DNA of 64,000 bases from Thermodesulfobacteriota bacterium (lineage in GTDB: Bacteria > Desulfobacterota > Desulfobacteria > Desulfobacterales > SURF-7). Positions 36,391 to 54,750 of the stretch are shown here, one piece after another. A program made the position numbers and the translations under genes. Below the pieces are notes generated by a model. The model made no database searches. It saw only the letters and a list, made by a program, of their open reading frames with translations, and was not told where the DNA came from. The stretch spans positions 288,001-352,000 of the forward strand of contig JBMORA010000009.1 of the NCBI GenBank assembly GCA_049320885.1, in the 5' to 3' direction. How positions within the stretch are numbered: the first letter of the stretch is position 1; each line of letters starts with the position of its first letter.

Positions 36391-36433
36391 TGGGAAAACA
36401 ACCCCGGGCATTCAGCTATTACAGAAAGGAAAT

Positions 36434-38281: not shown

Positions 38282-38287
38282 AGTGAT

Positions 38288-38314
38288 GTCGGCCCGGCCC
38301 CAAGCCGGGCCGAC
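38288..38314. terminator. 11-bp GC hairpin between convergent phaC and DUF3141 genes
   Basis: GTCGGCCCGGC-cccaa-GCCGGGCCGAC. Confidence 0.55.
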
Positions 38315-38318
38315 GCGG

Positions 38319-40481
38319 TCAGACCTTCAACACCCGTTTCAGGTGTTCCAGAATCAGGTTTTCCTCATCGTTCATCTGGTGATCCGCCAAGGCTACTTTT
38401 CTGGCGATTTCCAAGGCGGCGATCCTGTCGCCGGCTTCCGGAATCAGTTTGGCGAGAGCTCCCAGGGCCTTGTCCTCATCGGCATCCAGAATGCAGGCCT
38501 GCTGGCGGATCATCTGCCGGAAATCCTCTTCCCGGATATGCCGCAGGCGTTCATCCGCCGCCACGACCTGGTCATAGGTTTTCAGCACCGTTCGACGCAA
38601 TCCTTCGTCTGCATGGGCCATGGCCACCATGATCCGAACCACTCCCTCGGCGAATCCGCCGACGTTTCCGGCCTCCAGCCATTGGGCCGGACAGGCATTC
38701 TCGTCCCGGTCGCCTTCCGAAAGGAGCGACTTGTAGTCCCGGAACAGGACCAACATCCAGGGATTGCCGTAAACGGCCTTGAACCACAATTCCTGGGCCT
38801 GATCCCGCATATCCCGGTACAGGTTGAGGCCATCCGAAAGCATCTGCGCCACCCCCCTTTCCACCTTCACGAAGGGATTGCCGGGGGGCGCCTGCCTGCG
38901 GTTGGCCTTGACCAGCGGAGCCATGTATTTGTATGGCAGCATCCATGGATTGCGATCGGAAAAGGCATAGCGGGAAACCCGCAACGGATGGAGCTGGCGA
39001 ATCCATTCCGCCGACCAGTCATTCATGGCCGACCGTACCCAGGGGCTGATAAACGTGCGGTACAGACGGTCGTTGATCTCCGAGATGGCCGCCACCGGGC
39101 GGAACTCCTCTTCATCCGATGCGCCGTCGTCCAGGGTAAGGATTTCTTGCATTTCGCGTTCCTCGAAACGCACTTGATACTCACCGGGGGTCGCGCCGTC
39201 TTCGATAACCATTTCATACAATCCGGGCGAGAGATAGCCGATCAAATCGATGCTGGCGATGATTTCCTTGTGTTCTTTCTTGGAAACCTTGCCGGAAACG
39301 AAAATTCCCAGATGTCCGATGGTGTCGTGCAACAAATAGACCACCACCTGTTGATGCCGTTTGATCTCCGCAACGGATTTCCACACCTTCGCGATCCAGT
39401 TCAAGGCCTGCTGGGGCGGTGTGATGTTGTCGCCGCTGGACGCAAAGATCAACACCGGGTCCTTGAGGTTTTTTAAATCGATTTTCCGGCCCTCCAGCTC
39501 GAGCTCGCCCATTTCGAGTTTGTTGCCCACAAACAGATTCTGGGTGATGTAATGAATTTCCTCCCTGGTCAGCATGAAATAGGCGTTCCACCAGCGCTCG
39601 AATTCCAGGTAGCGATCCGCCTCCTTATCCACATTGGCGTAGACGTAATACTGCTTGTTCCACCAGGTGTTGGCGGGATTCAGATCCTCGAAGCCGGCCA
39701 CCAGGTTGGCGCCGTCAAAAATCCCGTTTCCCAGATCGCTCATCAGCGATGTCAGCCAGACGCCCCCGGTCAGCCCGCCCCGATAGCGCATGGGGTTTTT
39801 CCCGTCCACGCCGGCCCAGTAAGACAAGGGGGAGCCGTTGAAAACCAGGGGGCCGGCGATGTCGGGCCGGTCGGCGCCCACCAGGGCGGAAGCCCAGCCG
39901 GCCTGGCAATTGCCGATAATCGCGGGTTTCTGGGCCTCCGGGTGGCGTCGAATGACCTCTTCAATGAACCGGATCTGGGCATGGTGTACGTCGGTCAAGG
40001 TTTGGTCAGGGAGCGGATCGGCCTCGAATATCACGAAATATACCGGATGTCCTTCGTTGAGGGCCATGCCGATCTCCGAATCCCGCTTGGAGCCGCCAAT
40101 TCCGGGTCCGTGACCGGCCCGCGGGTCGATGATGATGACCGGCCGTTTTTTAGGGTCCGGCACGCCCCCGCCTTCGGGATTGTGCCGTTTTTCTTTTTCC
40201 GCCGGCGAGGCCTGCTGGACGGAATCGCGCCGGTCATGGATCCGCGCCAGGGAAAAGGCCACGGGCCGTTCCAGCGTCCTGCCGTCCAAAATGATGTCGT
40301 AACCGAAGGTCAATACCGGCGGTTTGCCGTTACGAATCTGTTCATAATAAATATTTCCCCGTTTTCTCAGGGTATCCATGAAAAGCACCGACCGCTGGCC
40401 GGAGTCCAATAGATAATCATAGGCGTCCTTGACAAAATTCGACTGTGCGAACAATTTTTGATGGGAATTCATGAGGTTCAT
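38319..40481 (-). CDS. DUF3141-family alpha/beta-hydrolase-fold protein (PHA synthase/depolymerase-like)
   Basis: DPRAGHGPGIGG, GNCQAGW, NGSPLSYWAG, GDNITPPQQAL, GHLGIFVS; RBS AAGGAGG. Confidence 0.85.
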   Translation of the reverse strand: MNLMNSHQKLFAQSNFVKDAYDYLLDSGQRSVLFMDTLRKRGNIYYEQIRNGKPPVLTFGYDIILDGRTLERPVAFSLARIHDRRDSVQQASPAEKEKRHNPEGGGVPDPKKRPVIIIDPRAGHGPGIGGSKRDSEIGMALNEGHPVYFVIFEADPLPDQTLTDVHHAQIRFIEEVIRRHPEAQKPAIIGNCQAGWASALVGADRPDIAGPLVFNGSPLSYWAGVDGKNPMRYRGGLTGGVWLTSLMSDLGNGIFDGANLVAGFEDLNPANTWWNKQYYVYANVDKEADRYLEFERWWNAYFMLTREEIHYITQNLFVGNKLEMGELELEGRKIDLKNLKDPVLIFASSGDNITPPQQALNWIAKVWKSVAEIKRHQQVVVYLLHDTIGHLGIFVSGKVSKKEHKEIIASIDLIGYLSPGLYEMVIEDGATPGEYQVRFEEREMQEILTLDDGASDEEEFRPVAAISEINDRLYRTFISPWVRSAMNDWSAEWIRQLHPLRVSRYAFSDRNPWMLPYKYMAPLVKANRRQAPPGNPFVKVERGVAQMLSDGLNLYRDMRDQAQELWFKAVYGNPWMLVLFRDYKSLLSEGDRDENACPAQWLEAGNVGGFAEGVVRIMVAMAHADEGLRRTVLKTYDQVVAADERLRHIREEDFRQMIRQQACILDADEDKALGALAKLIPEAGDRIAALEIARKVALADHQMNDEENLILEHLKRVLKV

Positions 40482-40521
40482 TTTCGCCCTCCTTGCGGTT
40501 GATCCTGCGCGTTTGCCCCTT

Positions 40522-40565
40522 TTGTGCTTTGCAACAAAGATATGACCAGCCACCGGGACTGTCAA
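40522..40565 (-). promoter_or_regulatory. Sigma70 promoter of the DUF3141 gene with a putative PhaR operator over the start site
   Basis: Minus strand TTGACA(40565-40560)-N17-TATCTT(40542-40537), directly followed by TTGTTGCAAAGCACAA (40537-40522). Confidence 0.7.
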
Positions 40566-40709
40566 TCCGGGAGTCCCTCCTGACGGCTTCATGTCGGATC
40601 ATCTGGTTGTTTTTACATGAAGTATATTTTGTAGAACCTGGAAATGGACGGGGCCGGGGGGAGGTGTCGGATCGACAACGCCGCCCCCTTCACTGCATCG
40701 GAAAGCGCT

Positions 40710-41231
40710 TCAGGATTCAGGTTCTTCATTGCCATCCGCTTTTTTTTCCGCTGCGGACGCAGGCGGCGCGTTTTCCGGCCGGCCTTTTCCCGGTCCGTAG
40801 GGGAACAAATCGAACAGGTTCCCGAAGGGGGGTGGGGTGGGGCCGGGCTTCGGTGCGCGCATGGAGATATCCATGCCCAGGTCAAGCCATTGTTTCACCT
40901 GGTCATCAAAGGCCTTTTTATAGGTCAGGTAATTCTGGATGGTCCGCTGCAGATATTTTTCCATGAATTCACCCAGGGTGTTGTCGCCGTGGCGGATGAT
41001 CAGGTGCAGAACCGGAACCGGCATCAGGATGTTTTTTTTCTTGGCCTCTTCCGTGATGATCTGGGTCAGAATAAAGGCGGTTACATCCTCTTTGGTTTTG
41101 GCGTCCACAATGGCCACGGTTTTTCCCGTCCGAATCATATCGGCCACCTCCTCCAATGTGACGTAGCAGCTGTTCTCCGTGTCATACAGACGGCGATTGG
41201 TGTATTTTTTCAGCAGGATGGTGTTTGTCAT
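40710..41231 (-). CDS. phaR: PHA synthesis/accumulation regulator (PHB_acc_N domain)
   Basis: KKYTNRRLYDTENSCYVTLE, VDAKTKEDVTAFILTQII, LHLIIR. Confidence 0.9.
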   Translation of the reverse strand: MTNTILLKKYTNRRLYDTENSCYVTLEEVADMIRTGKTVAIVDAKTKEDVTAFILTQIITEEAKKKNILMPVPVLHLIIRHGDNTLGEFMEKYLQRTIQNYLTYKKAFDDQVKQWLDLGMDISMRAPKPGPTPPPFGNLFDLFPYGPGKGRPENAPPASAAEKKADGNEEPES

Positions 41232-41363
41232 GACGCCCCCCTCGGGATGACCGGATCGTGATTTCTGCACAATCGCTTTTACGGTGGATGCGTATTTGTC
41301 ACGTGGACCGGTTTTATTTGGAATAATATACACTATTAAGCGTGGTGGCAATAAAAATAAAAA

Positions 41364-41416
41364 AATTGTGCATTGCAACAATTCGGGGTTGACATCCCTG
41401 CCGGGCGTGCTATCTT
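41364..41416 (+). promoter_or_regulatory. Putative PhaR operator and sigma70 promoter of the phasin-like operon
   Basis: AATTGTGCATTGCAACAATT (41364-41383), then TTGACA(41389)-N16-TATCTT(41411) with an extended -10 TG. Confidence 0.7.
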
Positions 41417-41463
41417 CTGGACAAGAGAAAATGAAGATGAACCGAACTCAAAGGAGGCTTACC

Positions 41464-41760
41464 ATGGAAACTACATTCATCACGCAACAGGTCGTCGATA
41501 TAAACCGTTTGTTTCTGGAGAACGTATGGAACACCCTGACCCTGCTCCATGATCAGGTGGAGAGAACCGGGCGGGCGGTTCTGGATCAACGGAACGCCTT
41601 GCTGGAGGAAGGCAGCCGTCTTGTGGAGGAATGGGCCAAGGAATCCAAAAAGAACCGGATCGCCGCCAAAAAGGCCATGGATGACAATTTCGAGCAGATT
41701 CTGGGGCTCTTCACCCTGCCGGATGCGGAAAAACCGAAACGCGCGAAGGCCGGGAACTGA
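41464..41760 (+). CDS. Small helical phasin-like protein 1
   Basis: RBS AAGGAGG; 98 aa amphipathic helix, paralogous to the next two genes; PHA context. Confidence 0.65.
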   Translation: METTFITQQVVDINRLFLENVWNTLTLLHDQVERTGRAVLDQRNALLEEGSRLVEEWAKESKKNRIAAKKAMDDNFEQILGLFTLPDAEKPKRAKAGN

Positions 41761-41812
41761 CGAACTTCCGGATCAGGGAAAAGACCAAATGACGGGAAGG
41801 GAGGAAATGAAC

Positions 41813-42076
41813 ATGGATCAACAAAAATTCATCAAACAGAGCATCGATTTCAATAAGAATGTTTTCAACAATCTGTTCAACGCCGCGGTGATGTTCCAGG
41901 ATCAGGCCGAAAGGGTGTCCCGGACATTTCTCGATCAGGTGACCTGGATTCCCGAAGAGGGAAAGAGCCTGGTCAACGAGTGGATCGAGGCGTATAAAAA
42001 GGAACGGGAAAATTATAAAACCAAAGCCGAGGCCGGATTTAAACAGATGGAAGCATTTTTCGGCGCGGCCAAATAG
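41813..42076 (+). CDS. Small helical phasin-like protein 2
   Basis: RBS GGAGG; 87 aa; FNK..F.N..NA....QDQ.E...W.PEEG...W...KK.RE pattern. Confidence 0.7.
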   Translation: MDQQKFIKQSIDFNKNVFNNLFNAAVMFQDQAERVSRTFLDQVTWIPEEGKSLVNEWIEAYKKERENYKTKAEAGFKQMEAFFGAAK

Positions 42077-42155
42077 GAATTCGCCGGATTGCGGCAGCCG
42101 CGATCAGCGACGCAGCCGGCGAGAAACGATTGACAAACAAGGAGGAGGTGAACAG

Positions 42156-42419
42156 ATGGATCCGAAACAGGTTTTCAAGCAAATGCTGGAATTCAACAAG
42201 ACTTCTTTTACCAATGCGTACAATGCCATGGTAATGGTGCAGGACCAGTCCGAGACCATGGCCGGTTCCATGATGAGCCAGGCGGCATGGCTGCCGGAGG
42301 AAGGCCGAAAGGCGGTTCAGGATTGGGTCAACGCCTGCAAAAAAGGTCGCGAGGAGTACAAGAAGCTGGTGGACAATGCATTTGAAAAAGTGGAAGCTTT
42401 TTTCAAGAATGCGGGCTGA
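42156..42419 (+). CDS. Small helical phasin-like protein 3
   Basis: RBS AAGGAGGAGG; 87 aa; same pattern as protein 2. Confidence 0.7.
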   Translation: MDPKQVFKQMLEFNKTSFTNAYNAMVMVQDQSETMAGSMMSQAAWLPEEGRKAVQDWVNACKKGREEYKKLVDNAFEKVEAFFKNAG

Positions 42420-42454
42420 CAGGACAAGGATCGACTGAATCCGGGGAGTGCCCA

Positions 42455-42997
42455 ATGAATAAACAGGTACTGGAGTTCTGGGGTAACGCGCTGATCCATA
42501 TGGCCAAAAGCCAGGAACAGCTGGAAGCCATGACGCGGTTGATGGACCAGGGGATGAAAACAGGTCTGGGCGGCATGGAGGCCTGGCCGGCTTTTTTCAC
42601 CGGTTTCTTCGGGCTGGGTTCCAAGGCCGAGGAAAAAAAGAACTCTCCGGCCGGAGAAGCCACCGCCAATCGGATTCCGGGCTGGGGTATCCCCATGGAG
42701 GATCTCCAGGCTTCGATCAACTGGTTCTGCGACCTCATGGGGTTCGTACCCAAGCAGGAGCATGTCCGGGTTTTACAGAAATACGAAGCGCTGAAACAAC
42801 GGTCGGCGGACCAGGAGGAAACCATCCGGCACCTGCGGTTGATGCAGCGCGAGGGGAATGCGGACCAAAGCACGTTGGTCAAGGATTTCCAGCGTATGAT
42901 CGCCGAACAGACCGAGCAGTTTCAGGAACTCATGAAAAACTCGGAGAAGTTTTTCCATTACGCCGCCTCCACATCCAAACCCCCGGACCGGGAATGA
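42455..42997 (+). CDS. Hypothetical coiled-coil protein, possibly granule-associated
   Basis: RBS GGAG; helical, LMGFVPKQEH followed by a coiled coil; last gene of the phasin-like run. Confidence 0.55.
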   Translation: MNKQVLEFWGNALIHMAKSQEQLEAMTRLMDQGMKTGLGGMEAWPAFFTGFFGLGSKAEEKKNSPAGEATANRIPGWGIPMEDLQASINWFCDLMGFVPKQEHVRVLQKYEALKQRSADQEETIRHLRLMQREGNADQSTLVKDFQRMIAEQTEQFQELMKNSEKFFHYAASTSKPPDRE

Positions 42998-43137
42998 ATC
43001 CGGCGGGCCGTCGCGGTCCCGTAATGGACCCGTCGGAATCCGGAAGCCGTGCATCAGTCTGATTCGGTCATGATGGCGGCTTCCGATTCCGTGCGCATGA
43101 GGGACAGGCAGGAAGAGCCTGCTTGAACCGCGGCGGG

Positions 43138-43566
43138 CTATGGTTTGGATGGCCTGGGCGGACTGACCAGCGCCTCGCCGTCGAGTACAATGGTCCCATC
43201 CTGGTTGACACAGGTCGTCTGCAACCTGACCCGGCCTTTTTCCGGAAGTTTTTCCAAAACCGCCACCCGGGCGGTGATGGTGTCGCCCATGCGCACCGGC
43301 GCAAGAAAGCTGAGTGATTGTTTCATGTAAATCGTTCCCGGCCCTGGCAGCATGGTTCCGATGACGGTTGAAATCAACCCCCCCACCAGCATGCCATGGG
43401 CAATTCGGGTCTTGAAAAAGGTTTTACCGGCGTAGACCGCGTTCACATGGGCAGGGTTCAGATCACCGGTTATGCCCGCATAGAGATACACATCCGATTC
43501 CGAAATGGTCTTGCTGAATTCCCGGGTATCACCCACAGACAACTCCTCGTAGCTTTTTCCGATCAT
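43138..43566 (-). CDS. phaJ: MaoC-family (R)-specific enoyl-CoA hydratase
   Basis: YAGITGDLNPAH, RIAHGML, LPGPGTIY, FLAPVRMGDTI; RBS AAGGAGG. Confidence 0.85.
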   Translation of the reverse strand: MIGKSYEELSVGDTREFSKTISESDVYLYAGITGDLNPAHVNAVYAGKTFFKTRIAHGMLVGGLISTVIGTMLPGPGTIYMKQSLSFLAPVRMGDTITARVAVLEKLPEKGRVRLQTTCVNQDGTIVLDGEALVSPPRPSKP

Positions 43567-43678
43567 GGCGGCGCCTCCTTGTTTTTCCATGGTTTGACAG
43601 CGGATGTCTCCTCCTTACCGGTTACCGGGAAGATATGTCAATACGCAATCGGCAGCCAGCGGGGATTGCAGTTACCCA

Positions 43679-43707
43679 TTGACAGGTTTTTAAACCACCG
43701 ATATGTT
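43679..43707 (+). promoter_or_regulatory. Sigma70 promoter of the binding protein-kinase-receiver-DAC operon
   Basis: TTGACA-N17-TATGTT. Confidence 0.55.
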
Positions 43708-43818: not shown

Positions 43819-45057
43819 TTGCGCTCGCCAATCCGACCCGTGAGGCATAGCCGCTTTCTGAGCGCGGCCGTTTTGGTTCTGTCGGCTCAGCTCCTTTGGT
43901 GCGCGGCCGCCTGTGAGCGGCCAGACGGCCGGGAAAGAGCTGCCGGGGCGGTCAACGGCGTCACGGATTCCGAGATCCTCATCGGTTCCTCCCTGGCCCT
44001 GGGCGGCCACGCCGGCTACCTGGGTACGCAGACACTCCACGGAGCCCTTGCATATATCAACTCCGTCAATGAATCCGGCGGCATTCACGGGCGGAAAATC
44101 CGGCTGATCGCCTATGACGATGCCTATGATCCAGGGAAGTGCGTGTATTACACCCAGAAATTGATCGTGGAGGACAAGGTTTTCGCCTTGTTCTGCTATG
44201 TGGGCACCCCCACAACAGTCAAAATCATCCCATTGGTTGCGGAGGCCCGGATTCCTCTGGTGGGCATGTTTACCGGCGCGAACGCCTTGCGTGAACCTTT
44301 TCATCGGTATATTATCAATGTGCGCGCTTCCTATTACCAGGAAACCGGGGCCGCGGTGGAATACATGGTGAAAAAACTCGGTATTCGGCGGGTGGCGGTT
44401 TTTTATCAATACGATGCCTATGGCTTCGATGGCCTCAAGGGAACCGAGCTGGCGCTTCAGCGATACGGCTTGGCTCCGGTGGCTACCGGAACCTATATCC
44501 GGGGGACGGTTAATGTGTCGGAAGGGCTGGATAAAATCATCCATTCGGCGGCGGAGGCCGTGGTTCTGATTGGAACGTACGACCCGTGCGCACGGGTCAT
44601 TATCCAGGCCCGGCAGCGGGGATATAGGCCTCTCTTTTACAACGTGTCTTTCGTGGGATCGGATGAATTGGCAAGAAAACTTGCCCCGGAAGATGATGGC
44701 ATCATCGTCACCCAGGTGGTGCCGCCGCCGGAACAGCCGGAAACCGGAGAAATGCTGTGGGGCGCGAAACAGTATACCCTGAATCTGAAACGGTATTTCC
44801 CGGAAGATGAGCCCAGTTTCGTGGGACTGGAAGGATATCTGAACGCCATGGTTTTGGCCGAAGGACTGAAACGGAGCGGAAGAAATCTTCAGCGCGAGGG
44901 TTTTATCGAATCCGTGGAATCCATCACCCGGTTCGACCTGGGAATCGACAATGATCTGAACTTCGGTCCGGCGGATCACCAGGGCCTGGATCGCGTCTAT
45001 TTCACCCGGCTGCGCAACGGGAAATTCCTGCTGATGGATAAGGCAGAAACGAATTGA
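43819..45057 (+). CDS. Periplasmic type I ligand-binding (LivJ-like) lipoprotein, sensor-associated
   Basis: AAC lipobox-like, GVTDSEILIG, YDDAYDP, YVGTPT, NVRASY; no transporter genes adjacent; stop overlaps the kinase ORF. Confidence 0.85.
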   Translation: MRSPIRPVRHSRFLSAAVLVLSAQLLWCAAACERPDGRERAAGAVNGVTDSEILIGSSLALGGHAGYLGTQTLHGALAYINSVNESGGIHGRKIRLIAYDDAYDPGKCVYYTQKLIVEDKVFALFCYVGTPTTVKIIPLVAEARIPLVGMFTGANALREPFHRYIINVRASYYQETGAAVEYMVKKLGIRRVAVFYQYDAYGFDGLKGTELALQRYGLAPVATGTYIRGTVNVSEGLDKIIHSAAEAVVLIGTYDPCARVIIQARQRGYRPLFYNVSFVGSDELARKLAPEDDGIIVTQVVPPPEQPETGEMLWGAKQYTLNLKRYFPEDEPSFVGLEGYLNAMVLAEGLKRSGRNLQREGFIESVESITRFDLGIDNDLNFGPADHQGLDRVYFTRLRNGKFLLMDKAETN

Positions 45058-46964
45058 CGACACCATCCGGTTTCCGACCCCCAATGGCCATGAATCTCGT
45101 CATCCGAAAAATCCGGGAAGCCAGCCTGAAAAACAAGATGTTTTTCTCTTCCCTCACGGTGATTCTGCTCCTCAGTTTTGTCATCGCCCTGTTCACCCGC
45201 TGGGTCCTGATTTCAAGCCTCACGGCGGAACTGGTAATGCGTGGCAGGGGAATCGCCGAAAGAGTGGCGGACAGCAGCCGGGGATATATTCTGACCGAGG
45301 ACATTCCGGAGCTTACCCATTTGATTTTTGACGCCCGGCTGGGGCTTCGGGAGTCTCTAGTCGCCTACATTTTCATTGTCGATGCCCGAAAAAAACTGAT
45401 GGCCCACACCTTCATGGAGGAGTTTCCTGCCGGTCTTCGGAACGCCAACGAGATTCCTCCCCGGGCCTCCTACAGCACCAAACTGGTGACCGTCGCGGGG
45501 ATTTCCGCCTATGACATCGCCATGCCCATCCGGGAAGGGATTTATGAGATCGGCAACGTCCATGTGGGGATCAAAAAGGAACACATCGACCGCCTGATCG
45601 GCAAACTGCGCACCACCTTCGTCGGTTTTCTCTCCTTCATCACCATCTTCTTTTTTGCCATCAGCCATATGCTTTCCCGCTATATCACCCGCCCGATTTC
45701 CCAGCTGACGGAGATTTCCAATGAAATCTGCCGCAGCCAGGCAATGGCGGGATTGGACCGGGACGGCTGCCCGTTGCCGGAACACTATTCCGGGGATGAG
45801 GTCATGCAGTTGGCCCATTCGTTCAACAATATGACCGCTCAGCTGTCCCGCAGTCAGAAGGAGCTGAAGGAGTCCGAGGGGAAATACCGCTCGCTGTTCA
45901 ACAGCGGTCCGATCCCGATTTTTGTTCTGGACCGGAAGACCTTGGAAATATTGGACGCCAATCCCAGCGCCGAGGAGACCTACGGATACCCGAAAGGAGA
46001 ATTGCTCGGTAAGTTCTTTACCGATTTCGGCCAATTCGAGTATGAGGAGAAGAACCTTAGAAAAACCGTGGAGAATGGGTGGCCGGATGGATACACCCTC
46101 ACCGAAAATGTGCGCTATTACCGCAAAGGGGACAGGCGGCCCCAATACATCCGCTTCAAGGCCTGTCCGGCGGAATATAAGGGGCGGGAGGCCCTGATAC
46201 TGGCGGCCACGGATATCACGGAAATGGTGGAAAAGGACGCACAGTTGATCCAGGCCAGTAAAATGAGCACCCTGGGGGAAATGTCCGCCGGTGTGGCCCA
46301 TGAACTGAACCAACCGCTGAATGCCATCAAGCTGGGCAACGAATACCTGAAAACCATGCTTCAGCAGAAACGGGCGATTCCGGAAGAAGACCTGCTGCAG
46401 GTGGCCACGGAGGTCAACAATCAGGTGATGCGCGCCTCGGAGATTATCAGCCGGCTGCGGGCCTTCGGCCGGAAAACCGATTTTGCCAAGGAGCGGGTGG
46501 ATATCAATGCGCCGGTTCAGGGTGTACTGAGAATGATCGGTCGGCAGCTGGAACTGGCAAACATCGCCGTGGAGATGGATCTGAACCGCGATCTGCCGGA
46601 AATCATGGCCCACAACAACCGTCTGGAACAAGTCCTCTTCAACCTGATCACCAATGCCATGGACGCCATCAACCGCGAAAAGGATGCGGCCGACACGAAG
46701 GATAAACGGATCATCCGTATCCGGACGTTCCGGAACGCCAACCGGGTGTCCCTCACGGTGGAGGACAGCGGCATCGGCATTCCCGAAAGCATCCGGGGAA
46801 AAATTTTCGAACCGTTCTTCACCACCAAGGAAGTCGGCAAGGGCATGGGACTCGGCCTCTCCATCATTTACGGCATCGTGAAAGACTACAACGGGGACAT
46901 CTCCGTGGAAAGCAGGGAAGGGTTTGGGACTGTTTTTAACCTGAGTTTTCCGGCCGCCCCTTAA
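45054..46964 (+). CDS. Membrane sensor histidine kinase (2TM-HAMP-PAS-HisKA-HATPase, NtrB-like)
   Basis: [53 protein letters not shown]; start may be ATG 45084 or 45090. Confidence 0.92.
46230..46343 (+). repeat. 114-bp inverted repeat copy A (kinase DHp coding region)
   Basis: 108/114 nt identical to the reverse complement of 49491-49604 by manual alignment. Confidence 0.85.
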
Positions 46965-46981
46965 CCGAAGGAGTTCACAGA

Positions 46982-47353
46982 ATGGAAAGAATTTTGATTA
47001 TCGACGATGAAAAACCGACCCTCGCCATGTCGCGCCTGTTTTTGGGCGCGCTCGGGTATTCCGTGCTGACCGCCGAAAACGGCCCGGCGGGGCTTGAAAT
47101 ATTCGCGCGGGAACGCCCCCGCATCATCCTGACGGACATTAAAATGCCGGGGATGGATGGCTTCGCCGTGCTGAAAAAGATCAAGGAAACCGATCCGTCG
47201 GCCGAAGTCATTGTCATAACGGGACATGGCGACATGGATTTGGCCCGGAAAGCCCTTGATTTACAGGCCAGTGACTTCATTCACAAACCAATTGAAAAAG
47301 AAGCCCTTGAAACCGCCTTGAAAAAAGCCGAGGAACGGCTCCGCTCCGCCTGA
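46982..47353 (+). CDS. Single-domain response regulator
   Basis: ILIIDDE, LTDIKMPGMDG, ITGHG, FIHKP; no output domain. Confidence 0.92.
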   Translation: MERILIIDDEKPTLAMSRLFLGALGYSVLTAENGPAGLEIFARERPRIILTDIKMPGMDGFAVLKKIKETDPSAEVIVITGHGDMDLARKALDLQASDFIHKPIEKEALETALKKAEERLRSA

Positions 47354-47414
47354 TCCGGACATTCGGTCCGCGGCGGGCGTTCCATCCCCGGCGGGAATGG
47401 TGTGACGAGACCTT

Positions 47415-48851
47415 ATGTCGGATCCGATTATTGGAAATATCAGCATTTATCATATCTCGGAAGGACTGCGGGAGGCCCTTTCCCATTTCTCCGGTCCGAG
47501 CCGGGTGGCGATCATCTATGCCGCCGAAGAGAACGATGCCGTGCGCATGTATGATCCCCAGGAGCTGCTGCGCGGTCATGAGCTGAAATTGAAGGAAATC
47601 TACCTGGAGTCGAATGCCTGGCGGGAAACGTCCACCCCGGTCCGTACCCTGGATCGTTTCCGGCAGCCCATCATCGAGACAGGGCTACCGCTGGCCGGGT
47701 TGATCTCCATGGGCGGTCGCTCGCACTCCATGTTTTATCAAATGTGGTTTACCGAACATCACCCGGAAATGTGCTCCACCGGGCCAACGGAGCGATGGCT
47801 GGTCAGGGCCGCCTGGTTGTTGTCCCAGGACATCGCCAGGGATAACGCGGATTACACCGGTGAATCCAGCTATGTCATCCGTGAGTATGCTCCCCATGCG
47901 GTGCGGGATTATCTGGTGAATGAACTGAATCGGCGGATCGGCATGGACATCCAGCTTCGCATCTATCCGATCCTGGATGCGGTGCTGGGAATATCCCGCA
48001 CCATGGAGGAAGGCCTGTGGCCCCGGGGCGAGCTGGTCGTTATGGAACCCCGCACGGTGAGTTTCCTGAAATTTCTGGCCCGCTTCCCGTCAACCGAGCA
48101 ACCCAAGCTGAAAAATTTCAAGCATGTGAGAAAATTGCTGCAAGCCGTGGAAAATTCGGACAGAAAACTGATCTCCGACGGCGACAGCATTGTTGGAATC
48201 AGCGGTAAGGAGTTGCCATCCGTGAGGCTGGTGGCGGATTTCAGGGGCGGGCACGGCTTCCTGAAACTCAACAACGATCCGATTTGCAGCTTTTCCGACG
48301 GGAATTTTCATTCTTTTACCCGCCGGGCCAAAATGGTGCAATTGGAGGAATTCCTACTGGAAGCCGATTTCGATCCGCCTTCCCTGGCCCATGATTTGTT
48401 TCAAATCATCGCCGATATCGTCCATCATGCGGAAGCCCAGAAGTTCGGTTGCACCCTGGTGATCGACATCAATCGGCAACCCATCGAAATCGCCGGTCAG
48501 CACCTGGAAGTCCCCCTGGATCTGCGCGATCCGGTGGTTTTTTCATTGACCACGTCGCTGGCCAAACTGGACGGCGCCCTGCATATCAGTTCCGATCTGA
48601 AACTTCATGGATTCGCCTGTATTCTGGACGGCCATGCCCTCAAGACCGAGGACCGCTCCCGGGGCGCCCGCTATAATTCGGCGCTGCGCTTCACCGCCGA
48701 GCACGACCATATCCTGGTGGTGGTGGTTTCCGCCGACCGTCCGGTTTCCGTGATTCAGGAAGGCCGGGAGTTCACCCTGATCAACGAATGGCGGGCAACC
48801 CCGGCGCGATTGACATCGCCGCCTCTGTTGGAGGAGTGGCTTCGCGGATAA
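47415..48851 (+). CDS. Cytoplasmic protein with C-terminal DisA_N/diadenylate cyclase (DAC) domain
   Basis: GCTLVI, LAKLDGALHI, GFACILDG, RGARYNSALRF, VVVSADRPVS; no TM helices. Confidence 0.8.
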   Translation: MSDPIIGNISIYHISEGLREALSHFSGPSRVAIIYAAEENDAVRMYDPQELLRGHELKLKEIYLESNAWRETSTPVRTLDRFRQPIIETGLPLAGLISMGGRSHSMFYQMWFTEHHPEMCSTGPTERWLVRAAWLLSQDIARDNADYTGESSYVIREYAPHAVRDYLVNELNRRIGMDIQLRIYPILDAVLGISRTMEEGLWPRGELVVMEPRTVSFLKFLARFPSTEQPKLKNFKHVRKLLQAVENSDRKLISDGDSIVGISGKELPSVRLVADFRGGHGFLKLNNDPICSFSDGNFHSFTRRAKMVQLEEFLLEADFDPPSLAHDLFQIIADIVHHAEAQKFGCTLVIDINRQPIEIAGQHLEVPLDLRDPVVFSLTTSLAKLDGALHISSDLKLHGFACILDGHALKTEDRSRGARYNSALRFTAEHDHILVVVVSADRPVSVIQEGREFTLINEWRATPARLTSPPLLEEWLRG

Positions 48852-48863
48852 AACCGAATACGA

Positions 48864-50972
48864 TCACTCCTTTTCTACCCGCGGGAACGAATAGCGGAAA
48901 GTACTGCCTTTTCCCTCTTCACTGCGCAGTTCGATATCACCGCCGTAGTCCCGGATGATTCCATAGATAATGGACAGTCCGAGTCCCATGCCGGCGCCGA
49001 CTTCCTTGGTGGTGAAAAACGGCTCAAAAACCTTGCCGTGGATCGGTTTCGGGATCCCGATGCCGGTGTCGCTGACGGATACCCCCACCCGGTCGTTTTG
49101 ACAGAAGGTGGCGATGGTGATGGTATGAACCGTCGGGGCCGGGTCGGTCTGTCTCTTTTTATTGATGGCGTCGCGGGCGTTGGTGATCAGGTTGAAGAGG
49201 ACCTGCTCCAGACGGTTGTGCTGGGCCAGAATCATCGGCGGGTTCTCCAGCAGATTCAGCACCACCCGGATACTTTCCAGCCGGAGCTGTTCGCCGATCA
49301 TTTTCAGCACGCCCCGGACCGGCTCGTTGATATCCACTTCCTGTTTGCTGTTATCGGTTTTCCGGCCGAAGGCCCGCAGCCGGTTGATGATGTCCGAGGC
49401 CCGTTCCACCTGTTCGTTCACCTCCGCCACGACATGATACAGATCCTGATCCGGAATGGGGATGTTGCGGGCGATCATGGTTTTCAGGAATTCGTTGCCC
49501 AGCTTGATGGCGTTCAGCGGTTGGTTCAGTTCATGGGCGATGCCGGCGGACATTTCCCCCAGGGTGCTCATTTTGCTGGCCTGGATCAACTGGGCGTCCT
49601 TTTCGATCACTTCCGTGATGTCCGTGCCGGCGAGAATGGTGGCTTCCCGCCCTTTGTAAATCGCGGGGCTAACCTTGATTTTGATATAGTGAAGGCGGTC
49701 CGTTTTCGGATCGTGGAGCCGCTGGATCACCATGCCGTTGGCGGGCCAGCCGTCCACATGGATCCGCGCCGGCCTGCGGTCGTCATATTCGAAGGTCCCG
49801 AAGTCGGTGAAAATCCTACCGATCAAATCCTTTTTTTCCTGGGCGAAGGTCTCGGCGGCGCAGGGGTTGGCGTCCAGGATTTCGAAACTGTGCTTATCCA
49901 GAACCACGATGGGATTGGGGCCGGCGTTGAACAGGGAGCGGTATTTTTCCTCGGATTCGAAAAGGGCCTTTTCCGCCAGCTTGCGGGTGGTGATATTCAG
50001 AAAAGCACCGATGACAAAATCGATCTTTCCGGTTTCATCGCAAATGATCTGGCCGCCTTCTTCTATCCAGAAAATTTCCCCGCTTTTGGAACGGATGCGG
50101 TATTCGCGGATGAAGGACTTGTCGGTTTTCAGGGCCTGAAGGAAGGTGTTTTTAACATATTCATGATCCTCGGGTACAACGATATCCATCCATTTTTTTT
50201 GACCGGACAGGAACTCTTCCTTGCCGTAGCCGGTGAGGGCCATGATTTTATCATCGATGAAATCGATATCGCCGTTGGCGTAGCCCTTGAAAACCACGTT
50301 GGGCAGGTTTTTGAGGAGCAGCCGGTGATTGCGTTCGCTCTCGGTGAGGGCTTTTTCGGAGCGTTTCTGTTCGGAAATATCGTTGGCGATGAGCAGGAAT
50401 CCGCTGATGGCGCCTTCCGCATCCCGCAGCGCATGGATGGACATGCGCACCGGGAAAACGCCGCCGTCCTTGCGTACGTGAGTCCATTCGCGCTGGTTGT
50501 CGTCGCCTTGGGCGGCATAGGCGAGCAATACGTCGATTCCGCCGATGGCGCGGCCGGATTGCCGGCTCAATTCCAGGCCGTGGTCGGCGAGCTCCTCCCG
50601 GGACAGAAACAGTTCCGGAGTTACCTTGCCGATAACGTCCCTGGCGCGGTATCCTAGAATATTTTCCGCGCCGGTGTTGAAAACGATGATGATTCCGCTT
50701 TTGTCGGCGGCGACGATGGATATTTGCGAGGCGGAGTCCAGTACGGCCTTGCGCATGGCGTTGGCCATCTGAAACCGGTGCAGGATTTTTTCGGTCTCCT
50801 CGAACTGTTTCACCACCAGGTCGGCGGTGATTTTTGCCGCCTGGCGCGCCACCCGGATTTCCGCTCGCAAGGCATGATTTTCCTCCAGAACGGCGCGAAT
50901 GTCTTCGTCCGTCATGGGGGTTTCCCAGCGTCTTCGATGACGCGTCAGCCGGTAATTGACCGCTTGGGGCAT
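48864..50972 (-). CDS. Cytoplasmic multi-PAS histidine kinase (coiled coil-PAS-PAS-PAS-HisKA-HATPase)
   Basis: [46 protein letters not shown]; start 50972 or 50915. Confidence 0.92.
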   Translation of the reverse strand: MPQAVNYRLTRHRRRWETPMTDEDIRAVLEENHALRAEIRVARQAAKITADLVVKQFEETEKILHRFQMANAMRKAVLDSASQISIVAADKSGIIIVFNTGAENILGYRARDVIGKVTPELFLSREELADHGLELSRQSGRAIGGIDVLLAYAAQGDDNQREWTHVRKDGGVFPVRMSIHALRDAEGAISGFLLIANDISEQKRSEKALTESERNHRLLLKNLPNVVFKGYANGDIDFIDDKIMALTGYGKEEFLSGQKKWMDIVVPEDHEYVKNTFLQALKTDKSFIREYRIRSKSGEIFWIEEGGQIICDETGKIDFVIGAFLNITTRKLAEKALFESEEKYRSLFNAGPNPIVVLDKHSFEILDANPCAAETFAQEKKDLIGRIFTDFGTFEYDDRRPARIHVDGWPANGMVIQRLHDPKTDRLHYIKIKVSPAIYKGREATILAGTDITEVIEKDAQLIQASKMSTLGEMSAGIAHELNQPLNAIKLGNEFLKTMIARNIPIPDQDLYHVVAEVNEQVERASDIINRLRAFGRKTDNSKQEVDINEPVRGVLKMIGEQLRLESIRVVLNLLENPPMILAQHNRLEQVLFNLITNARDAINKKRQTDPAPTVHTITIATFCQNDRVGVSVSDTGIGIPKPIHGKVFEPFFTTKEVGAGMGLGLSIIYGIIRDYGGDIELRSEEGKGSTFRYSFPRVEKE
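49491..49604 (-). repeat. 114-bp inverted repeat copy B
   Basis: See copy A at 46230-46343. Confidence 0.85.
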
Positions 50973-52501
50973 TTCCGCTGTTTCTCCAATCGGACGGCGT
51001 GCACGGTGCAGACCAGACAGGGATCGAAGGATCTCAGAATATGATCCGCCTCAATGGGCTCCTCCGGGTTCTTGATCGGCGCGCCGATCAGGGCCTGTTC
51101 CCATGGGCCCCTTATCCCTCCGGAGTCCCGGGGGGAGGCGTTCCAGGCGCTGGGGGTGATGATCTGGTAGGCGGCAATCTTCCCGTCCCGGATTTTGACC
51201 CAATGCCCCAAGGCGCCCCGCGGTGCTTCGATGAGGCCGAAGCCTTCACCGGTTTCGATCCGGTCATAGGATTGAAAATAGCGTTTCTCCTGAAGGCTGA
51301 TTTCTTTCAGCCATTGCTCCAGCACCGGCATGATCAGGGCCGGCCGGACGAGCCGCGCCAGTTGACGGGAAAAGGCTGTCGGGCCGCCGTTGTTCACCAA
51401 ATCCGTGAACAGCGGATTTCCGGCGATTATCATTTCCGCCAAAGGCCCTGTTTCCGCCGGCTTTCCGTCGTAACGGGGTGCTTTGGCCCAGGAGTATTTT
51501 TCACTCTCGCTACCCGTGGCATACGGGCGGGTCAGGCCCTCCATGGGCTGGCGGGCTCCGGAATACCCGCTGAACCAGGAGTGGGTGATGTCTTCCGCCA
51601 CGTTTTCCGGCCGGAATGGTTCCACCTTCCCGTCGTTGCCTGCAAACCCGGCGGGCAGCAGGTTGGGTCCGCCGTTGGGCGGTTTGACCGCGGTGTTCTG
51701 GGGCATGTCCAGCAACCCGTAACACAAGAAATTTCCATGCCCCCTGCCGATTTGTTCCAGACCGGCCTCCCGGGCAAAACGGATGAAGAAACCGATTTCC
51801 TTTTCCCGGTGGTCGGGATTTTCGTCCAGCCAGGCATCCAAATCGGCCCGGCCGGCGATCTCCTGCCAGCGTTCCAGGCGGCATCCCAGAAATTCCGTTT
51901 CATACCAGGAGCGAAAGCTGCTGAGCAGATACCGGCACTGCATGATTTCGTTGCGACTCGGCAGGGACACGACGCCTCCCGGCACCATAAAGGAGGAATG
52001 CGGCCATTGCCCGCCTAAAATGGCGACGATTTCCAGTATCTTTTTGGTATGATGGATCACCTGCCGGGTAACGCTGCCGGTCAGGAAGGGATAACGGCGC
52101 ACGGCCTCGTCATACAAAGAGTGATTCCGGTAAATCGGGCGGGCGAAGTCGCTCATGAACAACAGACAGCCGTGGCGGATGTCGTTTTGAAGCATTTCCA
52201 CCATGAGCGTGCCGTTGCGGATGCGCCGGGCGCCCCCCGGGACCTTGACGCCGGTGATCATGTCCAGGGCCTTGGCCGCCGCCTTCAGGTGGGCGGTGCT
52301 GCAAACGCCGCAAATCCGGGGTGTGATGACCAATCCGTCCAAGGCTCCGCGGCCCCGGAGGATGTTTTCGAATCCACGATACATGGTTCCGGCGCTCCAG
52401 GCATCCGTCACCACCCCGTCCTGGATTTCAAGCCGAACCTTGAGATCCCCCTCCACCCGGTTCAGCGGATAGATCTGAATATGTTTTCGCTGTGTGCTCA
52501 A
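50945..52501 (-). CDS. [NiFe] hydrogenase large subunit, group 2-like (putatively sensory)
   Basis: NRVEGDL, RGFE, L1 TPRICGVCSTAH, YSWAKAPR, EAPRGALGHW, L2 SFDPCLVCTVH; TTG start overlapping the small-subunit stop. Confidence 0.93.
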   Translation of the reverse strand: MSTQRKHIQIYPLNRVEGDLKVRLEIQDGVVTDAWSAGTMYRGFENILRGRGALDGLVITPRICGVCSTAHLKAAAKALDMITGVKVPGGARRIRNGTLMVEMLQNDIRHGCLLFMSDFARPIYRNHSLYDEAVRRYPFLTGSVTRQVIHHTKKILEIVAILGGQWPHSSFMVPGGVVSLPSRNEIMQCRYLLSSFRSWYETEFLGCRLERWQEIAGRADLDAWLDENPDHREKEIGFFIRFAREAGLEQIGRGHGNFLCYGLLDMPQNTAVKPPNGGPNLLPAGFAGNDGKVEPFRPENVAEDITHSWFSGYSGARQPMEGLTRPYATGSESEKYSWAKAPRYDGKPAETGPLAEMIIAGNPLFTDLVNNGGPTAFSRQLARLVRPALIMPVLEQWLKEISLQEKRYFQSYDRIETGEGFGLIEAPRGALGHWVKIRDGKIAAYQIITPSAWNASPRDSGGIRGPWEQALIGAPIKNPEEPIEADHILRSFDPCLVCTVHAVRLEKQRKCPKRSITG

Positions 52502-53436
52502 ATTTCCGTTTTCCTGGTTTTCAGTCGTTCAGGGGCGGCTGCCGCGGCCATGCCTTTATAAGCCAGATAATGGGCCCGGCTGACCCCGTCGGGCAGCTCG
52601 ATCGGGATCCCCTCGATATTGCGGGTTTCGAAGAAGGAATAATGCTGCGGGAAATCGGGCCGCGTGCAGCCGAAACACGGCACACCCACCCGGGTTTTGG
52701 ACGAACGCCGGTTCCACAAGCGTTTGTTGCAGGGGCCGGTTGCCAGGGGGCCGTGGCAGCCCAGATGAAAAAACATGCAGCCTTTTTCGCCGAACTGCTT
52801 CTCCTCCACGCGGAATTCGTGATATTCATTGCGCGTGCACCCCTGGTGCACCATCATGCCGTACCATTCCAGCGGCGTATGGTAACCGGTCAACACGAGT
52901 TCCTGGCCGGTCACAAGGGCCGCCAGCGTTCCGCAGATGATATCGCAATGGCAGGGGCATCCCGGCAGGTTGATGACCGGCATGCCGCTGCTGCTGCGAA
53001 ATTCCTCCCCCAGGAACCCGCCTTTTTCCCATTTATGAAACTGCATGCCCGTGGCCTCGATCTCACCGTCCGCCCCGATTCCGCCGAAACTGGCGCAGGT
53101 GCCGATGGCCAGGACATGATTGGCTTTTTTGGCCAGGGAGGCCACCAGGTTTTTTTTGGGCGCGCCATAGGCTTCGTCATACATGCCGGTTCCGCCCGGC
53201 CCCCGGATGATCGATCCCTCCACGCACAGAATGTCGAGCTTTTCCTCCTCGGCAATCAGGCGCTCGATCATGTGTTCCTGCTGCCGGACGGACTTGGCGG
53301 AGATCGAGGGATGCCAGAGCACGTCGATGTTCAAGAGCCGGAACAGTTCGATCACATCCGGTGTTTCGGCATTGAACAGGGACCAGGTATCGCCCCCGCA
53401 CCCGCCGCATTGAATCCAGTAAAGAGTGATGGACAT
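52498..53436 (-). CDS. [NiFe] hydrogenase small subunit, cytoplasmic (no Tat signal), HupU/HoxB-like
   Basis: WIQCGGCGGD, LWHPS, VEGS, GTCASFGG, NLPGCPCH, HQGCTRN, GCHGP, PCFGC. Confidence 0.92.
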   Translation of the reverse strand: MSITLYWIQCGGCGGDTWSLFNAETPDVIELFRLLNIDVLWHPSISAKSVRQQEHMIERLIAEEEKLDILCVEGSIIRGPGGTGMYDEAYGAPKKNLVASLAKKANHVLAIGTCASFGGIGADGEIEATGMQFHKWEKGGFLGEEFRSSSGMPVINLPGCPCHCDIICGTLAALVTGQELVLTGYHTPLEWYGMMVHQGCTRNEYHEFRVEEKQFGEKGCMFFHLGCHGPLATGPCNKRLWNRRSSKTRVGVPCFGCTRPDFPQHYSFFETRNIEGIPIELPDGVSRAHYLAYKGMAAAAAPERLKTRKTEI

Positions 53437-53828
53437 GGACCGCCTTTCTGAAAAGCGAACGAGATTGCATGATGGCCGTATTGAAAAATCATACCCTTTC
53501 ATGAGGGTGGATTTCAAGTATTATTCACCGGATAAGGTTGGCGAGGGGAAGAGTCAAGGCTTTCTATCCCGCAATCGAATTCGCCGGGAATCGCTTGAAA
53601 AAGGTCATCGGCCGTTGGGCGGGGTTTCAAGATTTTCAGTTTGGGGGCTCTCCTTGCTGTTCGATTCCTTTCAAATACACGGAATAACCCGCGTTGATCC
53701 ATTTGATCGCCCGGCTCAGGTTCGGATAAGGAGTTACCATCGCAACACTCACAGGCGCCAACTTGTTTGGCTTCCTATGGGGGGCGGCAGCAGTTGATTT
53801 GATAGCGCCATTGCAACCATGTGGATTT

Positions 53829-54197: not shown

Positions 54198-54476
54198 TTA
54201 TTTTTTCACTTCAACCAAATTTCCGTTGATGAATTTGTGGATAATGCTGGATACGTAAGTCTGATACGGCAAGCCTTCAATAACAGCTCTTTTCTGAAGC
54301 TCAAGAAGATCTTTTTCCGAAATCCGTATATTTAACCTCTTATCCTTGCGTAACGTATTACGTGCATAGGCTATTAATTCTTTTTTTCTTTTTGGGAGGT
54401 TTGTAACTGGCACCCACTCATCTTTCTCGAAACTATCGAGTATTTCTTTTTCTTCTTTCGTTAATTTTGTCTTCAT
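54198..54476 (-). CDS. Antitoxin, CopG/BrnA-like ribbon-helix-helix protein
   Basis: EEKEILDSFE, KDKRLNIRISEKDL, GLPYQTYVSSIIHK; RBS GGAGG. Confidence 0.8.
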   Translation of the reverse strand: MKTKLTKEEKEILDSFEKDEWVPVTNLPKRKKELIAYARNTLRKDKRLNIRISEKDLLELQKRAVIEGLPYQTYVSSIIHKFINGNLVEVKK

Positions 54477-54750
54477 TATTTCCTCCAAGATATCTTTGTG
54501 TTGCCTTCCTACAGGGAATAATGGTTTTGAGAAATACTTCTTCATTATTCTCGACATAAGGAATGAGATAGGCATAATTGGAAATATTGATAACCATAAT
54601 TCGCTGTCCGGGGTAATCTTTTTGATTGGGATGCAGGTAGTCATCTAATAAGTCACCTCTTTCAATAAAAAACACCACATCCTCAAAACAGATGCCCCGA
54701 GACGACTTAAGCGCGACGCTCTTTTCTGTGTTCCAGTTTATGTATTTCAT
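54433..54750 (-). CDS. Toxin, BrnT-like RelE-superfamily ribonuclease
   Basis: WNTEK, RGICFEDV, HPNQKDYPGQ, YAYLIPYV, FLKTIIPCRK; lies upstream of and overlaps the antitoxin. Confidence 0.8.
   Translation of the reverse strand: MKYINWNTEKSVALKSSRGICFEDVVFFIERGDLLDDYLHPNQKDYPGQRIMVINISNYAYLIPYVENNEEVFLKTIIPCRKATQRYLGGNNEDKINERRKRNTR

Follow-up and report, generated by a model that had tools for sequence, protein, structure and literature searches.

A group 2c-type hydrogenase module of a Desulfobacterota bacterium that likely senses hydrogen, with a candidate docking helix and a lone receiver probably shared by paralogous kinases

A stretch of 64,000 nucleotides from a Thermodesulfobacteriota bacterium of the order Desulfobacterales (GenBank assembly GCA_049320885.1, contig JBMORA010000009.1, positions 288,001 to 352,000; the whole stretch is referred to below as the window) carries a seven-gene locus in which a [NiFe] hydrogenase operon faces a second signaling operon. 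The hydrogenase operon is of the group 2c type and likely senses H2, as judged from its sequence and its gene neighborhood. The arrangement that we favor, and hold to be fairly probable as a whole, is one in which H2 acts through the hydrogenase and an N-terminal helix on a soluble PAS kinase and then on a shared receiver, where the signal would be joined by ligand and membrane inputs; the output would be exerted in trans, and a cyclase-like protein encoded behind the receiver would be a passenger. A first-pass annotation of the locus had gone further and proposed that H2 and an extracellular ligand are integrated on the receiver and set the activity of the cyclase, taken to make cyclic di-AMP (c-di-AMP). 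That link between H2 and c-di-AMP is not supported by the comparison of relatives set out below.

The anatomy of the locus had been described correctly in the first-pass annotation. All seven genes were confirmed as real, four on the plus strand in the left operon and three on the minus strand in the right one, with the facing stop codons 12 bp apart and the gene order as claimed. None of the seven encodes a cytochrome b, diaphorase, protease or hyp product, a GGDEF protein or a DNA-binding regulator. The complete layout is not widely conserved, and a cyclase adjoining the hydrogenase was seen in the three examined genomes of the genus alone, namely the window's own genome (G000) and its relatives G001 and G002.

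The company that the hydrogenase keeps in relatives was surveyed in a class sample of 301 evenly drawn genomes, 45 of which have this large subunit; sensing of H2 may accordingly be widespread among the sulfate reducers of anoxic sediments. Levels of H2 govern competition and syntrophy in such sediments. Neighborhoods were tallied by tblastn at all 43 hydrogenase loci from 42 genomes outside the genus; the flanks after the large subunit span about 2.5-10 kb, and many are cut by contig ends. At 21 of the 43 loci the hydrogenase keeps company with a PAS kinase and a lone receiver that both share 50% identity or more with the corresponding window proteins. An MMPL-fused kinase is present at 17 of these 21 loci and a group 1 hydrogenase or hypF at 13, and GGDEF is lacking throughout. 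Desulfatibacillum alkenivorans (L044) is a cultured strain whose module belongs to this subtype. Eighteen of the other 22 loci do carry GGDEF, in the scanned examples as a REC-GGDEF protein behind a hybrid kinase. The cyclase, the polyhydroxyalkanoate (PHA) genes that adjoin the locus in the window, and a sigma-54 regulator were each found at none of the 43. The supposition that the parts of the locus are linked in relatives thus holds for the receiver and fails for the cyclase. One relative, G077, combines the binding protein, the membrane kinase in pieces, the receiver and the hydrogenase, without the cyclase (L175). The binding protein, membrane kinase and first receiver there lie in pieces inside the hydrogenase module (L175:5910-7900), through decay or assembly error.

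Several features of the large subunit place the enzyme. Its L2 motif, SFDPCLVCTVH, agrees with the group 2c consensus SFDxCLVCTVH as quoted in an excerpt of one paper (PMC4853749), and the exact motif recurs in 48 of 76 relatives; the L1 motif reads TPRICGVCSTAH. The same excerpt assigns group 2c mostly to aquatic sulfate reducers and methylotrophs, and an excerpt on HydDB lists the group as diguanylate cyclase-linked (putative), with its role undetermined (PMC5037454). The closest named large-subunit loci, at 85% and 73% identity, are both from Desulfobacterales. In a quick tree (30 rows, midpoint root, no HydDB references, group 1 rows dropped by the coverage filter, and L052 on a long branch) the window large subunit clusters with GGDEF-linked enzymes and lies apart from the four HoxB/HoxC-like rows (SH-aLRT 100). 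A diguanylate cyclase or phosphodiesterase partner is found neither at the window locus nor at any of the 21 loci of its subtype, against 18 of the 22 other loci of the clade. Because the sources word the diguanylate cyclase link only as "putative" or "may be", the enzyme is filed as a 2c-type variant: by sequence it fits group 2c as a variant without a diguanylate cyclase.

The small subunit begins at the first metal-binding motif, and most full-length relatives have about 312 residues, so that it has no twin-arginine translocation (Tat) leader, as first annotated. Both a Tat signal and a membrane anchor are absent, and the hydrogenase is cytosolic by sequence. Two cysteines that serve as cluster ligands in HoxB-like proteins are replaced by Asp16 and Lys247, which are invariant in 54 sequences. 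The C-terminal tail of the small subunit is highly conserved and aligns with the tails of HoxB-like proteins (L056-L059). The large subunit carries a C-terminal extension of 17 residues, which ranges from 0 to 32 in the 76 relatives (11 have none) and is 0 in the four 2b-like rows. The proposal of the first reading of the locus that this is a sensory hydrogenase working with the PAS kinase is probably right.

The kinases encoded behind these hydrogenases vary in architecture and share some 60 N-terminal residues, predicted as one long helix continuing into the first PAS domain; no Pfam family covers this region at curated cut-offs. A helix-bearing kinase stands behind the large subunit at 43 of 43 class loci, whatever its architecture. 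Six kinases that were scanned (L012, L031, L036, L045, L049 and L051) have no PAS or GAF domain before HisKA, so the helix region is their only evident input. A helix profile built from the hydrogenase-linked kinases of the 45 class genomes matched one protein in the window's own genome and reached only E 0.06 against L052; the HoxJ-like kinases of L056-L059 have no such N-terminal helix. The profile finds the helix in 49 of the 301 class genomes, the 45 used to build it and 4 more. These 4 are the only ones among the 256 genomes without a large-subunit match, and in 2 of them the helix adjoins a hydrogenase after all.

An independent test came from metagenomes, where the helix served as the sole query for 80 loci (the top 80 of 165, mostly close relatives). 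A 2c large subunit ends within 1.2 kb upstream in every one of the 75 loci that extend at least 400 bp in that direction, and overall 78 of the 80 have a large subunit ending within that distance. Among 1.84 billion protein representatives the helix has 219 matches, and in 149 of the best 150 of these it starts inside the first 70 residues. The best 150 include 89 proteins of at least 250 residues: 68 have a kinase core, 7 GGDEF and 1 SpoIIE, and 13 were left unlabeled by the BLAST set. Two of the GGDEF proteins are named diguanylate cyclases of Magnetococcales, and one (P0211) is fused to a hydrogenase-protease-like domain. An ESM Atlas search with the helix returned unnamed clusters only (best 0.93). 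The helix is thus found almost exclusively beside these hydrogenases. Since its fusion partners include kinases, diguanylate cyclases and a phosphatase, it is likely a hydrogenase-docking adaptor, which is the simplest reading. Some observations pull the other way. The 45 positive class genomes are circular as evidence, being the profile's own source; the helix occurs without a neighboring hydrogenase in G203 and in a second copy in G210, and the helix locus of G149 retains no more of the large subunit than its final 32 residues. The helix runs straight into the first PAS domain and could be a plain dimerization coil co-inherited with the operon. At 7 of the 43 class loci a divergent hydrogenase-protease-like gene lies between the large subunit and the kinase (e.g., L012:11473-12000 and L047:4840-5304).

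As proposed in the first reading, the window's two kinases probably converge on one receiver. They are 60% identical over 378 residues and 75% identical in their DHp regions. Other DHp regions of the same genome are more distant: an MMPL-fused kinase on contig C55 reaches 56%, a kinase on contig C44 reaches 51%, and the rest are at 39% or below. Helix 1 of the DHp domain sets partner choice in two-component systems. Convergence is likely because of the 75% DHp identity and the shared synteny, the kinase and receiver accompanying the hydrogenase at almost half of the class loci; the PAS kinase and the membrane kinase thus likely both phosphorylate the lone receiver, and the MMPL-fused kinase is, by sequence and synteny, a probable third kinase acting on it. 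Two findings count against this shared wiring. The binding protein and membrane kinase were found at only 1 of the 43 other hydrogenase loci. Receivers of this family are also frequent, with matches in 189 of 301 genomes at E<=1e-33, so that 50% receiver identity does not prove orthology. The C55 protein (L117:9726-12713) is an MMPL/RND-fused histidine kinase of the same DHp family with the histidine kept; such a kinase lies inside the module in G001, G002 and the 17 subtype loci mentioned above and has moved away in the window's genome. The C44 cluster (L119:5942-12478), which encodes a PAS kinase, two REC-kinase hybrids and two lone receivers, holds the next closest kin of the window's receiver, and cross-talk with it is possible.

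The left operon has a background of its own. Among 343 receiver matches, 12 loci outside hydrogenase loci were picked from the best 150, and 11 of the 12 have the binding protein (58-66% identity) and membrane kinase in the same order. The receiver is 60-71% identical to its counterparts in these cassettes. In 10 of the 12, REC is fused to STAS, and the two lone receivers sit behind an MMPL kinase; a Pfam scan found STAS in all five cassette proteins scanned, four of them above the cut-off. The cyclase and the hydrogenase are absent within all 12 stretches (L189 lies about 13 kb from one). By gene order and identity, the left operon derives from a widespread cassette of binding protein, kinase and REC-STAS, and the window receiver is, on sequence, a STAS-less form of the REC-STAS family. 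The window shares three genes in the same order with this cassette of Desulfobacterota, but its receiver is without STAS and is followed by a cyclase. The binding protein is likely the ligand receptor of the membrane kinase. The hydrogenase-linked receivers have 119-130 residues at all 21 class loci, across several families, and one further locus (L015) has the hydrogenase, both kinases and a REC-STAS protein at its end. A literature search for a cassette of binding protein, Cache kinase and REC-STAS returned no match. The STAS domains of the cassettes (L189-L200) mostly have Asn where a stand-alone STAS protein on contig C32 has Ser.

As for the target of the receiver, we think it possible, if less likely than not, that loss of STAS left the receiver to work in trans through a partner-switching circuit, the most plausible effect being a tuning of H2-uptake genes; this is weakly inferred. 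As a point against the favored arrangement, a REC-STAS protein of the receiver's family was found in only 2 of 24 genomes with the module and not in the window's own genome.

The cyclase-like protein has the architecture DACND-DACNH-DAC, where DAC denotes the diadenylate cyclase domain, and its family occurs in 122 of the 301 class genomes. The DAC domain scores 55 bits for PF02457 against a cut-off of 27, and the predicted model has a DAC fold, with Z scores of 12-15 to chains of CdaS, CdaM, CdaA and DisA (2fb5: Z 14.9, root-mean-square deviation 2.5 over 131 residues); a sequence search with the domain found no PDB relative and no plasmid match. The DGA motif is intact in the window protein and in 23 of 23 relatives. 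The RHR motif is not: the first Arg is invariant and is followed by Phe (17) or Tyr (6) and then Asn in all 23 relatives, and the window protein reads R-Y-N. In a whole-protein structure search DACND resembles GAF and LuxR ligand-binding folds at Z about 6 only, which is within noise. Excerpts of two reports state that DS-2C proteins (DACNG-DACNH-DAC, CdaG) make c-di-AMP in vitro (10.64898/2026.08.10.743927; PMC13640721), and the excerpt of the former adds that activity, and synthesis of cyclic UMP-AMP (cUA), is possible for divergent DACs in which the motifs are retained in part. Like CdaG, the window cyclase has DACNH and DAC domains, the DAC fold and a weak NCBIfam match (NF053872, 74 bits against a cut-off of 630); unlike it, the protein has DACND for DACNG, R-[FY]-N for RHR, and no conserved neighborhood in 36 loci. 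Cyclase activity is plausible from sequence, and the product is uncertain because the RHR motif reads R-Y-N. A search of the window's genome for c-di-AMP riboswitches found none. A defense role for the cyclase was considered and is not supported by the NCBIfam score. The same genome encodes a second DAC protein (G000:C24:10490-11950), of the membrane type with a long C-terminal part.

These properties bear on the model, close to that of the first-pass annotation and limited to the genus, in which the STAS-less receiver captured the DACND cyclase and H2, the ligand and the MMPL signal set the level of c-di-AMP or of a non-canonical cyclic dinucleotide. The case for it is a local one: each of the three genomes of the genus has the cyclase (76-82% identity) directly downstream of the receiver and in the same orientation, the intervals being 61 bp, about 40 bp and, in G001, a start/stop overlap, and it stayed in place where the binding protein (in G001) and the MMPL kinase (in G000) did not. 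The receiver has no output domain, the DGA motif is intact throughout the family, and the other loci of this hydrogenase do end in second-messenger enzymes (GGDEF at 18 of the 22 loci without the receiver). All of this weighs against treating the cyclase as a passenger, but the wider comparison points the other way. The cyclase is at none of the 43 other hydrogenase loci and none of the 12 cassette loci, and genes of the module are missing from all 36 cyclase loci sampled on long contigs in other genera, where no conserved cyclase neighborhood was seen. Any receiver at all lies near the cyclase at 7 of those 36 loci; in the window's own genome the comparable figure is 78 of 297 tiles. Although the cyclase family is more frequent in genomes with the hydrogenase (34 of 45 against 88 of 256 others), this difference is confounded by kinship and genome size, and there is no enrichment with the receiver-type module: 15 of 21 genomes with a lone receiver beside the hydrogenase have the family, against 16 of 21 without. 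Six of the 21 receiver-type genomes, 94-99% complete, have no DACND match, and where a closed or nearly closed genome holds both (G077, G121, G197, G226 and G311), the cyclase lies 0.4-1 Mb from the hydrogenase. The three genomes of the genus are close kin that also share the PHA cluster, the R-[FY]-N deviation runs through 23 of 23 relatives, and the second DAC of the genome has both motifs canonical. We therefore regard control of the cyclase by the receiver as not supported, put the chance of such a capture as slight, and take the cyclase to be likely a co-transcribed passenger that stands beside the module only in this genus. Were the capture true, this rewiring of receiver to cyclase would be the first hydrogen-to-DAC pathway, and the docking helix would be a general plug letting these hydrogenases drive kinases, cyclases and phosphatases.

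In the mechanism that we favor, Hyp proteins would mature the hydrogenase; HypC, HypD, HypF and a maturation protease are encoded on contig C8 beside a group 1 hydrogenase. The mature enzyme would dock onto the PAS kinase through the small-subunit tail and the N-terminal helix of the kinase, and H2 oxidation would change the kinase's activity, switching it off if the system behaves like HoxBC-HoxJ. The PAS kinase, the membrane kinase coupled to the binding protein, and the MMPL-fused kinase would all act on the one receiver, at which H2, the periplasmic ligand and a membrane signal would be summed. The cyclase likely has a small-ligand input of its own in DACND.

The closest functional precedent is the group 2b system HoxBC-HoxJ-HoxA of Cupriavidus necator, which, in the excerpts available (PMC10073562, PMC8229454), has the same order of small subunit, large subunit and soluble PAS kinase, an alignable tail and no membrane anchor. 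The excerpted accounts state that HoxJ phosphorylates HoxA when H2 is absent (PMC10073562) and that the C-terminal tail of HoxB is the part binding HoxJ (PMC8229454). By analogy, the module likely works like HoxBC-HoxJ but falls outside group 2b. Its large subunit is only 38-40% identical to the HoxC-like rows and sits on a separate branch; the sigma-54 regulator is missing from the window as it is from the 43 sister loci, whereas the HoxBC-like row L059 has one together with a PAS kinase; and the window proteins have Asp16/Lys247 for two Cys, the 17-residue large-subunit extension and the kinase N-terminal helix. With group 2c the enzyme shares the L2 motif, the lack of a Tat leader, the sulfate-reducer host group and sister loci with GGDEF (18 of 43), and in the quick tree it falls in the clade of a Sulfurimonas enzyme that is followed by a PAS-GGDEF-EAL gene. 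It differs in that the window has no GGDEF and its subtype ends in a lone receiver, usually with an MMPL-fused kinase; across the class sample the partner gene invariably encodes a histidine kinase, and GGDEF, where examined, sits in a REC-GGDEF protein behind it. The work points to a coupling element for group 2c, a 60-residue helix outside any Pfam family, and offers a wiring of tail-to-helix docking, three paralogous kinases and one receiver. If the helix is a portable adaptor, H2 biosensors with chosen outputs could be built. A literature search found no description of this wiring, of the helix, of the MMPL/RND-fused kinase or of an H2-DAC link; key surveys of group 2c and of DAC proteins may already cover the DACND family, its motif and the 2c-kinase neighborhoods.

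Two further explanations have to be weighed against this wiring. The lone receiver might be a phosphate sink or a trimmed remnant, with the kinases signaling mainly to distant regulators such as the REC-kinase hybrids on C44. A receiver without any output is what such a sink would look like, the DHp region of the C44 kinase is the 51% relative noted above, the receivers of the two C44 hybrids are 51% and 48% identical to the window's, and the absence of a sigma-54 regulator from all 43 loci means that any transcriptional output lies elsewhere. The C44 cluster has its own kinase, however, and the intact length of the receiver at 21 of 21 loci argues against decay, though not against a sink; taken together, we find this account improbable. 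It is still harder to see the hydrogenase as no sensor at all, that is, as a low-level cytoplasmic H2-cycling enzyme whose co-expressed kinase would respond to redox state or a ligand by way of its PAS domains. Among solved structures the nearest is Huc, which we take to be a catalytic group 2 enzyme; the small subunit departs from HoxB-like proteins at two cluster-ligand positions, and the HydDB excerpt leaves the role of group 2c undetermined. Yet no electron-acceptor subunit is encoded among the seven genes, the kinase behind every class large subunit bears the helix while several such kinases lack PAS, and the HoxB-like tail is highly conserved, all of which makes a purely catalytic role very unlikely.

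The first reading of the locus had also named the adjoining PHA cluster, whose MaoC gene is divergent from the binding-protein gene, as a possible target. The cluster (window 36290-43590) comprises a class I PhaC-like gene, DUF3141, a PhaR-like gene, small open reading frames (ORFs), a gene presumed to be PhaE-like, and MaoC, and it lies beside the module in G001 and G002 as well. Outside the genus PHA genes are at none of the 43 hydrogenase loci and at 1 of the 36 cyclase loci, so the proposal is not supported; the cluster was rejected as a target and its position ascribed to genus-level synteny, the three genomes that share it being close kin. That one cyclase locus (L135, G321:C17), from another family, has the DACND cyclase beside PhaC-, PhaE- and PhaR-like genes.

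The features of the locus are collected in Table 1. The two best sigma-70-like promoter matches of the region sit at the two operon heads, but promoter evidence of this kind is weak, since 9 sites were found and shuffled sequence gives 5.7 +/- 2.5. Between the two facing stops no terminator-like site was called.

Table 1. Positions of the genes and other features of the locus within the window
Feature	Position	Strand	Remarks
Sigma-70-like promoter match, head of left operon	43679..43707	+	Consensus match only, 10/12
Periplasmic binding protein, Peripla_BP_6, branched-chain amino acid/urea-like class	43819..45057	+	Likely ligand receptor of the membrane kinase
Membrane histidine kinase, sCache_3_2-HAMP-PAS-HisKA-HATPase	45054..46964	+	4-bp overlap with binding-protein gene; paralogue of the soluble kinase in its C-terminal half
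Lone receiver, 123 residues, STAS-less member of REC-STAS family	46982..47353	+	
DACND-DACNH-DAC nucleotide cyclase-like protein	47415..48851	+	DGA at residues 386-388; RHR site R-Y-N at residues 419-421
Soluble histidine kinase: N-terminal helix, three PAS, HisKA, HATPase	48864..50972	-	Likely start ATG at 50915
Conserved N-terminal kinase helix of about 60 residues, candidate hydrogenase-docking adaptor, no Pfam family	50730..50915	-	Kinase residues 20-81
[NiFe] hydrogenase large subunit, group 2c-type	50945..52501	-	L2 SFDPCLVCTVH and 17-residue extension
[NiFe] hydrogenase small subunit without Tat leader	52498..53436	-	4-bp overlap with large-subunit gene; Asp16, Lys247
Small-subunit C-terminal tail, alignable with HoxB-like tail	52501..52629	-	Alignment
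Sigma-70-like promoter match, head of hydrogenase operon	53488..53517	-	Consensus match only, 10/12

Beyond the hydrogenase operon, a lower-GC stretch of the window (54198-54750, minus strand) holds two small overlapping ORFs, one with a weak NikA-like match, which presumably resemble a toxin-antitoxin pair; no counterpart was seen at the same place in G001 or G002. Elsewhere in the genome, the group 1 hydrogenase large subunit on C8 (L118:11359-13032; G000:C8:13397-15001, minus strand) has an in-frame TGA at the second Cys of L1, which we take to be the bridging ligand position, and a Cys at L2. The in-frame TGA version is also present in L158, L143, L149, L150, L155 and L029. A hairpin with a GGT loop follows shortly after the TGA in seven of seven TGA versions, and the five nearest TGC versions are different at this place. 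Both tRNA-Sec and SelB are encoded in the genome, and the TGA of this group 1 enzyme likely encodes selenocysteine.

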